DNA from: a phage
Reading direction: 5' to 3' (one strand)
Length of the DNA stretch: 64,000 bases
Sequence record: PZ154895.1
Shown: positions 8,824 through 18,345 of the stretch, one piece after another
Layout of the letters: every line of letters starts with the position of its first letter
Numbering within the stretch: position 1 is the first letter of the stretch
The notes under the pieces: model-generated
Seen by the model: the letters and a program-made list of their open reading frames with translations, nothing else
Database searches by the model: none
What the model was told of the DNA's origin: nothing
Made by a program: the position numbers and the translations under genes

Positions 8824-9081
8824 ATGAAAACTTTCAAAGAGTTTGCTACAAAAACTACTATCACTGAATCTTCACACGGTATGGAAGTAAAGCTTGGAAT
8901 GGCTTTAGCTGAAGCTGAGCGTCTTTTATCTCGTATTAAAGAACTTGCTGCTGCAGTCGATCCTTCATCTTTTAAAGGAGACCAAACTAAAGTTAAAGCA
9001 CTTTTAGCATTATGCTCCGATGCAGGAGAAATTGCTAAAAATGGTTCTAAGATGAAGAAACGATTAGAAGATTTAAAATAA
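8824..9081 (+). CDS. internal protein-like (N-terminal capsid targeting sequence MKTFKEF..ITE)
   Basis: 85 aa; CTS-like N-terminus; paralogous to ORF 17106-17387; early promoter upstream. Confidence 0.55.
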   Translation: MKTFKEFATKTTITESSHGMEVKLGMALAEAERLLSRIKELAAAVDPSSFKGDQTKVKALLALCSDAGEIAKNGSKMKKRLEDLK

Positions 9082-9093
9082 TTTCACAAAGTT

Positions 9094-9129
9094 GTTTACA
9101 GAAGGGTAGTAGTGTGATACTATTACCCT
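9094..9129 (+). promoter_or_regulatory. early promoter (PeSL-like), second copy of the same cassette
   Basis: identical 31 nt to 8740-8770 including -35; -10 gatactat; inverted repeat agggta/taccct. Confidence 0.6.
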
Positions 9130-9151
9130 ATCAACTACCGAGGAGAATAAA

Positions 9152-9337
9152 ATGAAACGTTGTGAATTAATTCGAAATGTTGCTATTGCAATTTCTGCTT
9201 CTGCATTTAGCTTTTCAATGTTTGTTGGATTTATATGTGGATTATTAACTACAGCAGAAAATGTGTTTTCACTTGTAGTAGCATTTTTAATTGGTTTAAT
9301 TGCTATCGTTATGGATAAAATTTCTAAAGGTGAATAA
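9152..9337 (+). CDS. small membrane protein
   Basis: 61 aa, two hydrophobic segments, SD GAGGAG upstream. Confidence 0.45.
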   Translation: MKRCELIRNVAIAISASAFSFSMFVGFICGLLTTAENVFSLVVAFLIGLIAIVMDKISKGE

Positions 9338-9738
9338 TGAACGTTGAATACTATGTATATGCGGATTACGAAAATAATCCATCTAAAGATGAAGATAATC
9401 GTTTAGGTGTAGATGCTTTCGATTCCCCTGCAGCGGCATGGCAATGGGTTGAAAGAACCGATATTCCTTACCGTTATATTGAAGTGGTTGACCACGCAGG
9501 AAACAAGTATCCTAAGGAAGCATATGTTCCTTCCGGGAAGGTAAATTTCCTTTTGTTTGCAGGTGATAATTATTATCCACGTGGTGGGTATACTGATTTA
9601 ATTGCGAAAGCCTCCACTGAAGATGAACTTCGTGACATTATCAAAGAAAATGAAAACAAACCGATGTGTGGTTCTAATCGCTTTGATTGGTGGCAAATTG
9701 TAAATGCCAATACGCACACTATTGTTGATGAAGGTTGA
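9337..9738 (+). CDS. hypothetical protein
   Basis: 133 aa ORF, start overlaps upstream stop. Confidence 0.5.
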   Translation: MNVEYYVYADYENNPSKDEDNRLGVDAFDSPAAAWQWVERTDIPYRYIEVVDHAGNKYPKEAYVPSGKVNFLLFAGDNYYPRGGYTDLIAKASTEDELRDIIKENENKPMCGSNRFDWWQIVNANTHTIVDEG

Positions 9739-10028
9739 TAATGATTCTTTATGCGAAAGTATCATCCATTGAAAATGGATATAAATATGATCAAGAAGCA
9801 GCTAAAGCCTTGATTGATGATTATGGCATTTTAACATATTTTGAAGTTGAAAAGGTTTACATTGACCGTTCATCTTCTCAAGTTAAATTAGTGAAGGAAG
9901 ATCGTAAATTTAATACAGTAAATTTTGATTTCTTTATTGAAACAGAAAAAGGTCCTCTTGAATATGATATTTTCAAGAATCCTTTGGGTCTTGAATGCAT
10001 CGTAAATATGTATTATCATAAATGGTAA
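9735..10028 (+). CDS. hypothetical protein
   Basis: 97 aa ORF, ATGA overlap with upstream gene. Confidence 0.5.
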   Translation: MIMILYAKVSSIENGYKYDQEAAKALIDDYGILTYFEVEKVYIDRSSSQVKLVKEDRKFNTVNFDFFIETEKGPLEYDIFKNPLGLECIVNMYYHKW

Positions 10029-10125
10029 ATATGCTTTAAGAATTATTTGTTATTATTAACTCATATCGCACTGATTAATACCCTCTATCATCAAGGGTTC
10101 TTGCTTAAGAGCCTTTGTTAATAAT

Positions 10126-10198
10126 TGGGAATTAGCCAAGTTGGTAAGGCACTGGATTTTGATTCCAGGATGCAAAGGTTCGAGTCCTTTATTCCCAG
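10126..10198 (+). tRNA. tRNA-Gln (anticodon UUG)
   Basis: 7 bp acceptor tgggaat/attccca, anticodon stem ctgga/tccag, loop ttTTGat, T-arm GGTTCGAGTCC. Confidence 0.85.
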
Positions 10199-10199
10199 C

Positions 10200-10286
10200 G
10201 CGAGAATGGTCAAATTGGTAAAGGCACAGCACTTAAAATGCTGCGGAATGATTTCCTTGTGGGTTCGAGTCCCACTTCTCGCACCA
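10200..10286 (+). tRNA. tRNA-Leu (anticodon UAA), long variable arm, encoded CCA
   Basis: acceptor gcgagaa/ttctcgc, anticodon stem cagca/tgctg, loop ctTAAaa, T-arm GGTTCGAGTCC. Confidence 0.85.
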
Positions 10287-10291
10287 AATTT

Positions 10292-10365
10292 GCGGATATC
10301 GTATAATGGTATTACCTCAGACTTCCAATCTGATGATGTGAGTTCGATTCTCATTATCCGCTCCA
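10292..10365 (+). tRNA. tRNA-Gly (anticodon UCC)
   Basis: acceptor gcggata/tatccgc, anticodon stem tcaga/tctga, loop ctTCCaa, T-arm GTTCGATTC. Confidence 0.85.
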
Positions 10366-16147: not shown

Positions 16148-16584
16148 AAACATTATCAGCTGGTATTATCTTTATGACAGAAGATAAAGATTTATTCATG
16201 GGACGGGTTACTGGTTCTCGTAAGCCTGGAATGATGGCACATCGCTGGGATATTCCAAAAGGCCGTGTAGAAAATTCTGATTTGAGCGCACTAGATGCAG
16301 CACGAAGAGAATGCTTAGAAGAGACCGGTTTTAGCAATTATAATCCAGACCTTCTAGAAGACCTAGGTGTATTTAAATATTCTAGTAATAAAGACTTACA
16401 GTTGTTTTATTATACGATTCCAGTAGAGCATGAGATGTTTAGAAATTGCCATTGTGAGTCTTATTTTGAAAATAAAGATGGCGTTATGATTCCAGAAATG
16501 GATGCTTTTGCTCTTATTCCTCGTACTCAGTGGCAATATGTGATGGGTCCTTCACTTTACCGAATAATGAACAGCCTCTTTTAA
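16144..16584 (+). CDS. nudE: Nudix hydrolase NudE
   Basis: Nudix box (RECLEETGF); immediately upstream of lysozyme gene as T4 e.1/nudE; ATGA-coupled start at 16144. Confidence 0.8.
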   Translation: MKTLSAGIIFMTEDKDLFMGRVTGSRKPGMMAHRWDIPKGRVENSDLSALDAARRECLEETGFSNYNPDLLEDLGVFKYSSNKDLQLFYYTIPVEHEMFRNCHCESYFENKDGVMIPEMDAFALIPRTQWQYVMGPSLYRIMNSLF

Positions 16585-16586
16585 TT

Positions 16587-16607
16587 TATAAATACCTTCT
16601 ATAAATA
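16587..16607 (+). promoter_or_regulatory. two tandem late promoters TATAAATA upstream of e
   Basis: TATAAATA at 16587-16594 and 16600-16607, then SD AGGAGG. Confidence 0.65.
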
Positions 16608-16620
16608 CTTAGGAGGTATT

Positions 16621-17109
16621 ATGAATATATTTGAAATGTTACGTATAGATGAAGGTCTTAGACTGACTTTATACAAAGACACTGAAGGCTTTTGGACGAT
16701 TGGCATAGGCCATTTAGTAACAAAGAACCCGTCTTTAGCCGTAGCTAAAGCTGAACTTGACAGAATGATCGGACGTAAATGCAACGGTACAATTACCCTT
16801 GATGAGGCTGAAAAGCTATTTAATGAAGACGTTGATAAAGCCGTTCGCGGAATCTTGGGTAATGCTAAACTTAAACCGGTATATGATTCTTTAGATGCAG
16901 TTCGTCGATGTGCGTTGGTCAATATGGTCTTCCAAATGGGCGTAGCAGGCGTCGCTGGTTTTACTAATTCTCTTCGTATGCTTCAACAGAAACGTTGGGA
17001 CGAAGCGGCAGTAAATCTAGCCCAATCTAAATGGTATCGTCAGACACCTAATCGCGCGAAACGCGTAATCTCAACATTTAAAACAGGAACTTGGAAAGCG
17101 TATATATGA
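16621..17109 (+). CDS. e: endolysin (T4 lysozyme)
   Basis: 162 aa beginning [15 protein letters not shown]; near-identical to T4 lysozyme as recalled; two late promoters upstream. Confidence 0.97.
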
Positions 17110-17387
17110 AAACATATAGTGAATTTTTATCAGAATCTATTCTTAACGAAGCTACTGACACATTTGCAACTAAGTTAGGTGCAGCTTTGGTTGAAGCCGA
17201 AAGTCTATTAGCACGTATTTCTGAACTTGCTAGTAAGATAGATACTCGCAAATTTGAACGTACCAGCGATATCGTTAAGCTTGAAGCCTTGTTGCGTATG
17301 TGCGATAAACCAGAAGAAATCGCTAAGAACGGCTCGCTAATGAAACAACGTCTTGAAAAATATATTTCAGGCGCTTCAGAAAAATAG
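17106..17387 (+). CDS. internal protein-like ([17 protein letters not shown])
   Basis: 93 aa; paralog of ORF 8824-9081 (shared ..[13 protein letters not shown]..). Confidence 0.55.
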
Positions 17388-17388
17388 T

Positions 17389-17442
17389 GTTTACTTCCTC
17401 CAAGGACTTTGATACTATACATTCATCAACTACTTGGAGGAA
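17389..17442 (+). promoter_or_regulatory. early promoter with stem-loop (PeSL-like) upstream of denV
   Basis: -35 GTTTACT, -10 TACTAT at 17413-17418; 10-bp inverted repeat ttcctccaag (17394-17403) / cttggaggaa (17433-17442) that includes the SD. Confidence 0.6.
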
Positions 17443-17445
17443 GTT

Positions 17446-17862
17446 ATGACTCGTATCAATTTAACACTTGTTTCTGAACTGACCGACCAACATCTTATGG
17501 CTGAGTATCGTGAATTGCCGCGTGTTTTTGGTATAGTTCGTAAACATGCGGCAAATGGTAAGCGGGTTAAAGATTTTAAAATATCTTCCGAGTTTATTTT
17601 AGGCTCTGGTCATGTTACGTTCTTTTACGATAAGTTAGAATTTTTGCGAAAGCGCCAATCAGACATTATAACGGAATGCTTAAAACGTGGGTTTAGTATA
17701 AAAGATACTGAAGTTCCTGACATCAGCGATATTCCAGCAGAATGGAAAAACGATTATAATCCATGCAAATCAGCTATTAAATTGAGTCAACAACGACTCG
17801 ATGAAAAAATTTTAATGAAGCCACACTGGTACAAGTATTACGGCAAAAATATTTACATTTAA
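17446..17862 (+). CDS. denV: endonuclease V (pyrimidine dimer DNA glycosylase)
   Basis: 138 aa beginning [23 protein letters not shown]; matches T4 DenV as recalled. Confidence 0.92.
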
Positions 17863-17871
17863 AGGAAACAT

Positions 17872-18345
17872 ATGAAAACATATCAAGAATTTATCACTGA
17901 AGCAGCTATTAATTCTCAAATTATTGCTGAATCTTTTACTGATCTTTTGAAATTTAAAAAAGGACAGAAAATTACTGCTGTATTAGATGATGGTACAGAA
18001 GTTGAGATGGATGTACAAGGATATAATTATGCAGTAGATGGAAAACTGTATAATAAATCTCATGCTAAATTTGATTCATTTGACGACTTTGTTAATACAG
18101 TTGAAGATGAAAAAACTCGTAGATCCATTGCAACTGGCGATGCTAAGGTTCTTATGGCACACGGTCATGAACGTATTCGCGCTAAACAGAATAAAATGGG
18201 CGAAGATAATTTCGCATTAGTTGGTTATCAATCTGGTAAGCAAACTTATGGCTATCAGCGTACTGCTACCATGTATAATAAAAATGGTAAAATCGCTTTC
18301 GTGAATAGCAAAGGCTCTATTCAGTACGTCAAATCATTCAAATAA
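17872..18345 (+). CDS. internal protein-like (CTS MKTYQEFITE-A)
   Basis: 157 aa; N-terminal 10 residues match the T4 IPIII-type capsid targeting sequence. Confidence 0.6.
   Translation: MKTYQEFITEAAINSQIIAESFTDLLKFKKGQKITAVLDDGTEVEMDVQGYNYAVDGKLYNKSHAKFDSFDDFVNTVEDEKTRRSIATGDAKVLMAHGHERIRAKQNKMGEDNFALVGYQSGKQTYGYQRTATMYNKNGKIAFVNSKGSIQYVKSFK

Follow-up and report, generated by a model that had tools for sequence, protein, structure and literature searches.

A 64,000-nucleotide stretch of phage DNA (sequence record PZ154895.1; we call this whole stretch the window) carries four plus-strand open reading frames (ORFs), at 8824, 12285, 17106 and 17872, whose products begin with MK[TS][YF]xxF followed by an [L/I]-x-E site. 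An earlier note on this DNA had taken them for internal protein (Ip) genes carrying the capsid targeting sequence (CTS) of phage T4. We directly observed the motifs, the homology and genomic context of the genes, their promoters and the structure of the cassette. The phage is a T4-like Tequatrovirus; positions 8000-19000 of the window are 93-95% identical to RB51, RB68, AR1, teqdroes, vB_Eco_EL and many others. Read on the opposite strand, T4 shows the same order of genes: 1, 57A, 57B, an ip gene, tRNA.4-.2, the tRNAs with a segB-like endonuclease, an rnaD/rnaC-like region, e.8 to e.2, nudE, e, an ip gene, denV, an ip gene and vs.8. Phage ime09 (NC_019503) carries all four genes in the same order. 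As in T4, 8824 occupies the canonical ipI locus between 57B and tRNA.4, and 17106 and 17872 lie on either side of denV, downstream of e, in the canonical ipIII/ipII locus. The earlier note had spoken of separate accessory loci; this holds for 12285, which lies in a truly different place between rnaC/rnaD and e.8, and for 8824, whereas 17106 and 17872 effectively share one locus around denV. Overall the system is already known, and only 12285 is new in it, probably as an unrecognised member of the Ip family at a third locus (Table 1).

Table 1. Genes and regulatory elements at the Ip loci of the window. A slash within a leader marks a predicted cleavage by the prohead protease gp21.
Feature	Position	Strand	Remarks
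Early-type promoter, GTTTACA, 17 nt, TACTAT; PeSL-like	8764-8803	+	upstream of ip5
Stem-loop, arms TGATGAGGTA and TACCTCATCA	8774-8803	+	overlaps the early-type promoter upstream of ip5
ip5, internal protein Ip5, 85 residues	8824-9081	+	leader MKTFKEFATKTTITE/SS, predicted cleavage after E15
Second PeSL-like promoter, TTTACA, 17 nt, TACTAT	9095-9123	+	directly downstream of ip5, bounds the variable slot
Left copy of 36-nt direct repeat, terminator hairpin AGCCCCAACCGAAAGGTTGGGGCT then T-run	12204-12239	+	single copy in T4 and T2
Exact T4 late-promoter box TATAAATA	12237-12244	+	starts 48 nt upstream of the 12285 ATG; arises at the left insertion junction
Candidate internal protein, unnamed, 157 residues	12285-12758	+	leader MKSYAQFLNE/AVLNE/AS
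Right copy of 36-nt hairpin repeat	12763-12798	+	89% identical to left copy; terminator of the cassette
Two exact late-promoter boxes TATAAATA	16587-16594 and 16600-16607	+	upstream of gene e; equivalents in T4
Gene e (lysozyme), divergent allele	16621-17109	+	stop codon overlaps the 17106 ATG (ATGA)
Ip5 paralog, 93 residues	17106-17387	+	IPII/III-type leader ending /SILNE/AT; ipIII/ipII position between e and denV
ip4, internal protein Ip4 (DUF7412), 157 residues	17872-18345	+	leader MKTYQEFITE/AA

Four genes with a predicted T4-type capsid targeting leader

We scanned every ATG-initiated ORF of at least 40 residues on both strands of the window for the N-terminal motif MK[TS][YF]..F. The scan returned the four ORFs and one 44-residue minus-strand ORF at 63561 (63561-63695), which starts MKSYEIF; the latter is hydrophobic and of low complexity, carries no [LI]xE after the motif, and looks like a non-coding chance match. 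From the amino-acid composition about 0.007 such N-termini would be expected among 157 ORFs of at least 60 residues, against the four observed, confirming the pattern that the earlier note had described. In T4, mutagenesis of IPIII by Mullaney and Black, as reviewed in PMC9026906, showed that targeting depends mainly on residues 4 and 7 and processing on residues 8 and 10: for targeting, position 4 must be aromatic and position 7 Phe, and gp21, which cuts after L/I-x-E, needs [I/L]-8 and Glu-10. The first 10 residues of T4 IPIII are enough to package foreign proteins (PMC9026906). All four window proteins carry Tyr or Phe at position 4 and Phe at position 7, and predicted gp21 sites follow at LNE10 and LNE15 in 12285, LSE10 and LNE15 in 17106, ITE10 in 17872 and ITE15 in 8824 (ITE19 in T4 IPI). 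The leaders thus fall into the classes known from T4, 8824 into the long IPI type (MKTFKEFATKTTITE/S, compared with MKTFKEFTSTTTPVSTITE/A in T4 IPI) and 12285, 17106 and 17872 into the 10-residue IPII/III type (Y4, F7, [IL]8, E10), in agreement with the match to the T4 CTS proposed before. When T4 IPI, IPII and IPIII were aligned with the four window proteins, a comparison that the earlier note had suggested, the leaders agreed, with only M1, K2 and F7 invariant, and the mature parts did not align.

The product of 8824 belongs to phrog_3499 'internal head protein' (E = 2e-49) and is 99% identical to Ip5 of RB15 (Z35082), T2 and PST and to Bas37_0261; its orthologs are annotated Ip5 or IpV in RB51, T2, PST, RB14, RB32, ime09 and the 1994 RB15 entry Z35082. 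Judged by these matches, 8824 is Ip5, a known gene named in 1994, with a predicted mature form of 70 residues and an isoelectric point (pI) of 9.2. In phage Killian (OQ446694, 87017-87262) the Ip5 ortholog is labelled 'MazF family toxin-antitoxin system protein', a name that is almost certainly wrong. The product of 17872 (predicted mature form 147 residues, pI 9.1) falls into phrog_3155 'internal virion protein' and Pfam DUF7412, and its counterpart at the same position is annotated Ip4 or IpIV in RB51, T2, PST and ime09; its family and position identify it as Ip4, likewise a known gene, and the leader pattern is kept throughout the Ip4 family. An AlphaFold2 model of Ip4 built from 13 homologs reached a predicted local distance difference test (pLDDT) score of only 50, and nothing was drawn from it. 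The Ip4 and Ip5 genes of T2, RB15 and PST are the same genes as 17872 and 8824, with nothing material different. According to other papers and GenBank notes, Repoila et al. reportedly described Ip4 and Ip5 of T2, T6, RB15, RB70 and PST in 1994 (EMBO J 13:4181).

The third gene, 17106, was called in the ORF list from an upstream TTG (17091); the ATG at 17106 yields the motif. Its product shares 49% identity with that of 8824 over 84 residues (E = 4e-25), bearing out that the two are clear paralogs. It belongs to phrog_3499 as well (E = 1e-46), is listed as 'internal head protein' in RefSeq records including ime09, and has a predicted mature form of ~78-83 residues. Carrying both Ip5 paralogs is uncommon: 13 of the 497 phage records with a family match have two copies. 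It is not unique to the window, since ime09 has both.

The DNA around these genes also follows T4. The ribosome-binding site and leader DNA of 8824 are the same as in ipI, and the ribosome-binding site and first 32 nt of 17872 are 94-95% identical to T4 ipII and ipIII. The intergenic DNA between 57B and the ip gene, comprising early promoter, stem-loop and ribosome-binding site, is ~95% identical among the window, T4 ipI, T2 ip5 and PST ipV, indicating that one expression module serves whichever Ip fills the ipI slot. T4-like phages carry promoter/stem-loop (PeSL) cassettes with variable ORFs in hyperplastic regions (Arbiol 2010, PMC2839356; Comeau 2014, PMC4122927), and the Krisch group linked PeSL elements to the shuffling of variable ORFs, Ips included (PMC4122927). 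The elements that bracket 8824 (TTTACA-N17-TACTAT) fit the PST/T4 PeSL consensus TTTACW-N17-TAYWAT (PMC4122927), and the upstream one overlaps a stem-loop, as in PeSL. A third early promoter of this type (TTTACA-N17-TACTAT) lies at 12930-12958, just upstream of e.8 and downstream of the 12285 cassette. At the other canonical locus, the stop codon of gene e overlaps the 17106 start, so translation of 17106 is probably coupled to the late-expressed lysozyme gene; the late-promoter boxes upstream of e probably serve 17106 too, and possibly 17872. The e allele of the window is ~82% identical at the nucleotide level to e of T4, RB51, T2 and PST and 94.6% identical to that of ime09, and its C-terminus is two residues shorter (...GTWKAYI compared with ...GTWDAYKNL).

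The 12285 gene and its hairpin cassette

Relative to T4 and T2, 12285 sits on a 524-bp insertion downstream of the rnaD/rnaC-like region, bracketed by two copies of a 36-nt hairpin repeat that had already been remarked by the RB51 annotators. A strong ribosome-binding site lies between the late-promoter box TATAAATA and the ATG. The cassette resembles PeSL in its logic, a duplicated regulatory hairpin on either side of a variable gene; in contrast to PeSL, a terminator hairpin is joined here to a late promoter, not to an early sigma-70-type one, and the sequence is unlike PeSL. TTTACW-N17-TAYWAT with a stem-loop beside the variable ORF was found at 8824 and not at 12285. Own late promoter and third locus likewise set 12285 apart from T4 IPI-III. 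The arrangement recurs outside the window: a homolog in the Klebsiella phage vB_Kp_M198, 51% identical to 12285, has the same hairpin and TTTTTAGTATAAATAT ~50 nt upstream, and a Mosigvirus homolog has a hairpin and AATAAATA upstream.

The protein belongs to phrog_2280 'unknown function', the RB32ORF132c / RB51ORF140 / bas37_0244 family, which spans more than 500 genomes of Tequatrovirus, Mosigvirus, Klebsiella phages and Yersinia phages. The leader pattern Ar-x-x-F-L-x-E, where Ar is an aromatic residue, is kept in homologs from Mosigvirus and from Klebsiella and Yersinia phages down to 38-42% identity; examples are MLEYSEFLKE (Yersinia phage fHe-Yen9-01), MLKFNEFLAE (metagenomic) and MKFKEFLAE (Klebsiella phages). 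Since the leader DNA of 12285 has diverged from the ipI and ipII/III leaders, this conservation is at the protein level. The predicted mature form (~142-147 residues, pI 9.5-9.6, 14% Lys) is all-helical, and in an AlphaFold2 model (pLDDT 74) leader residues 1-15 are disordered (pLDDT <50) and followed by a folded helical body. The model had no significant fold match in PDB (best E = 2) and none in BFVD beyond its own family. Three long repeat proteins (P0017-P0019) that matched 12285 in HMMER (E = 3.5e-6 to 3e-4) were rejected as repeat-inflated noise: BLASTP showed a single weak 54-residue match that recurs five times, and the Pfam matches were weak, unrelated domains.

We consider it likely that this family is an unannotated internal protein on a hairpin/late-promoter cassette at a third locus. 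The protein could instead stay out of the virion, as a cytoplasmic late protein or as a prohead-core accessory degraded like gp67/gp68, its CTS resemblance stemming from shared ancestry or past recombination with ip genes. Several observations point that way. The gene lies outside both canonical ip loci. Its family is 'hypothetical protein' in every match listed among ~512 matching phage records, and, of the source-given names read for its clusters, all but one are 'hypothetical' or 'uncharacterized', the exception being 'Internal head protein' from one Klebsiella phage entry. Its 99%-identical ortholog bas37_0244 in Bas37 (KarlGJung, MZ501089) shows no conditional phenotype in the Bas37 HIDEN-SEQ data, with no fitness effect on K-12 or on the four uropathogenic Escherichia coli (UPEC) strains CFT073, CFE299, CFE303 and CFE336. 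A further internal [LI]xE site lies at E110, and one homolog (P0005) has LMTE in place of LxE. We nevertheless regard a non-virion role as rather unlikely. The leader DNA has diverged while the functional residues were kept across genera, which argues for selection on the leader rather than a relic of recombination; a 10-residue CTS suffices in T4 for unrelated cargo (PMC9026906); and 12285 has a dedicated late promoter and a predicted mature protein of Ip-typical size and charge.

An ORF of 564 nt adjoins the 12285 homolog in Bas37 (bas37_0243, 7029-7592 of the compared stretch) and in ime09 (RB69ORF149c-like, 6126-6689) and is absent from the window at 12759-13000. In HIDEN-SEQ bas37_0243 is classed 'Essential' (1/48 TA sites hit), a surprising result for an accessory ORF missing from the window.

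Mature proteins and proposed anti-defence function

The predicted mature forms of all four proteins are small and basic (70-147 residues, 7-16 kDa, pI 8.1-9.6, 11.5-14.3% Lys), like T4 IPI*, IPII* and IPIII* in size and charge (pI 9.0-9.65, 13-16% Lys in T4). We think it very probable that the four ORFs are T-even Ip genes whose products act as follows. Each Ip would be made during head assembly and held, through its 10-15-residue N-terminal CTS, on the scaffolding core (gp22) of the prohead. The protease gp21 would then remove the leader after [L/I]-x-E, and the lysine-rich mature protein would stay among the packaged DNA and be injected together with it. Once in the cell, the Ip would most likely bind and neutralise a host nuclease that attacks the glucosylated hydroxymethylcytosine (hmC) DNA of the phage, such as a GmrSD-like or McrBC-like type IV enzyme, each Ip having its own narrow target. 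Packaging, cleavage and injection are proposed here from the CTS experiments in T4.

The DNA-modification genes examined in the window, at 44166-45368 and 57556-59135, are of T2/T6 type, with alpha-gt (PF11440, E = 2e-236) and a beta-glucosyl-HMC-alpha-glucosyltransferase (phrog_842). The window also encodes a gene-42-like enzyme with a thymidylate-synthase fold. Because of these glucosyltransferases and the gene-42-like enzyme, the phage DNA should carry T2/T6-type glucosylated hmC, a substrate of GmrSD-type (type IV) enzymes. In T4, IPI* inhibits the GmrSD of CT596 (PMC3012670, PMC9026906), and Ip1, Ip2 and Ip3 each block a different GmrSD enzyme, with Ip2 and Ip3 targeting distinct variants without cross-protection (PMC12373910). 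T4 needs IPIII on ECOR17, and the protein still functions if it is made in the host cytoplasm with its CTS removed (PMC9391042). Bas37_0260, a CTS-bearing protein at the ipI locus of phage KarlGJung, inhibits McrBC (bioRxiv 10.1101/2025.11.20.689424). Its leader (MKTYQEFIAE) and the logic of its ipI locus are like those of the window Ips; the window ipI locus holds a single gene, and Bas37_0260 is without an ortholog in the window, where the leader alone matches. Ip1, Ip2, Ip3 and Bas37_0260 are thus all type IV restriction inhibitors that are alike in the leader only. The injected anti-defence reading is now the mainstream view, which we infer by analogy for the four window proteins.

Several points weigh against this interpretation. 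The mature regions of all four proteins bear no resemblance to IPI*, Ip2, Ip3 or Bas37_0260, only the leader aligning, and they have no PHROG, Pfam, PDB or NCBIfam link to characterised inhibitors. Consequently no target can be assigned to the four, the targets of the T4 Ips are not transferable to them, and an anti-restriction role is suggested by analogy since homology to known inhibitors ends with the leader. Weak Pfam and NCBIfam matches (DUF7890, Paxillin, Shikimate_dh_N and 'curli synthesis inhibitor') fell far below the cut-offs and were rejected. No exact late-promoter box lies directly upstream of 8824 or 17872, and T4 ipI, ipII and ipIII are likewise without one. A literature search for virion proteomics turned up nothing on the four proteins (Ip4, Ip5, RB32ORF132c). 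The published Bas37 transposon tables (HIDEN-SEQ) list bas37_0261, the ortholog of 8824, as well as bas37_0244, as non-essential on K-12. In favour of the interpretation, mutants of bas37_0261 were depleted 4-fold on UPEC CFT073 (log2 fold change -2.09, adjusted p about 0) and were not depleted on CFE299, CFE303 or CFE336; this depletion, which its authors did not follow up, could be a polar or indirect effect, and the upstream 57B gene of Bas37 was also depleted on CFT073 (-1.56). CFT073 encodes the GmrSD homolog c5421 (PMC4437046), which makes an Ip5 target in this strain a testable lead only. The IPI*-immune 'UT' GmrSD is from UTI89, and c5421 is a different homolog.

The packaged proteins might also be mainly structural or physical in function, serving DNA charge neutralisation, head morphogenesis or DNA ejection. 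In favour of this, the four proteins share a basic, lysine-rich composition, T4 internal proteins touch DNA phosphates through their lysines, a link between IPIII and head morphogenesis has been reported (PMC3012670; PMC9026906), and Ip genes are non-essential on laboratory strains. Every Ip of determined function, however, is a specific type IV restriction inhibitor (Ip1, Ip2, Ip3 and Bas37_0260), IPIII without its CTS still rescues infection from the host cytoplasm, and an arms race accounts better for the extreme diversity of Ip genes and their cassette-like turnover. A mainly structural role is therefore unlikely, though structural and anti-defence roles are not mutually exclusive. Finally, the idea that the common N-terminus is a coincidence of AT-rich coding sequence without joint function, to which the spurious 44-residue ORF with the same motif lends some colour, is effectively refuted by the four matches among real genes where ~0.007 were expected, by an [LI]xE at the right distance in all four, by the membership of three of the four proteins in families annotated as internal proteins, and by leader DNA that in two genes is near-identical to that of T4 ip genes.

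Neighbouring genes and meaning for T-even phages

Between the Ip loci the window carries nine tRNA genes at 10126-11528 (Gln, Leu, Gly, then Ser, Thr, Met(CAT), Tyr, Asn and Arg). The set is interrupted by a 216-residue ORF (10370-11020) at the position of the RB51/teqdroes 'truncated SegB-like' or 'homing endonuclease' gene. tRNA-Pro, which is present in T4, is not among the nine. T4 rnaD/rnaC, the genes of small stable RNA species 2 and 1, have a 93%-identical counterpart at 11895-12239. This segment contains a tRNA-like T-arm and matched no Rfam family at the gathering threshold. Farther on, the homologs of e.4, e.3 and e.2 (14905-16147) are three adjoining small predicted membrane proteins with the C-termini ...FVKESRCKSQN, ...FVSDCRKIK and ...FITECRKLK, and this common motif points to tandem paralogs that share a conserved cytoplasmic tail. 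By their order and length, not by alignment, the Bas37 genes bas37_0240 and bas37_0239 correspond to the e.6 and e.5 homologs (13714-14957). They were strongly depleted on CFT073 (log2 fold change -6.49 and -3.62) and not on CFE299 or CFE336; the e.6/e.5 homologs may be host-specific counter-defence genes.

The anatomy of the loci hints at how Ip genes are exchanged: the near-identical leader DNA among ip genes and the duplicated hairpin around 12285 would be short homologies permitting cassette swaps. The interpretation given in the earlier note is supported, yet it largely restates established knowledge (Ip4/Ip5 in 1994, the CTS in 1996, anti-restriction in 2007-2025). As a tentative proposal that we hold with much less confidence than the identity of the four genes, the 12285 family (phrog_2280) might be an unrecognised class of packaged and injected proteins with its own hairpin/late-promoter cassette and a third ip locus, acting against some defence that Ip1-3 and Bas37_0260 do not hit; independently of this, CFT073 may have a defence that the Ip5 family counters.

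The internal-protein concept itself is not new and is unchanged by these findings. The CTS serves to load cargo into T4 heads for delivery, so natural variants of the leader that remain functional are helpful for its design. Host immunity encounters internal proteins before any other phage molecule; if 12285 is indeed an Ip, a widespread family and a third locus would join the candidates to be tried against uncharacterised defences, and several hundred 'hypothetical protein' annotations would be corrected.

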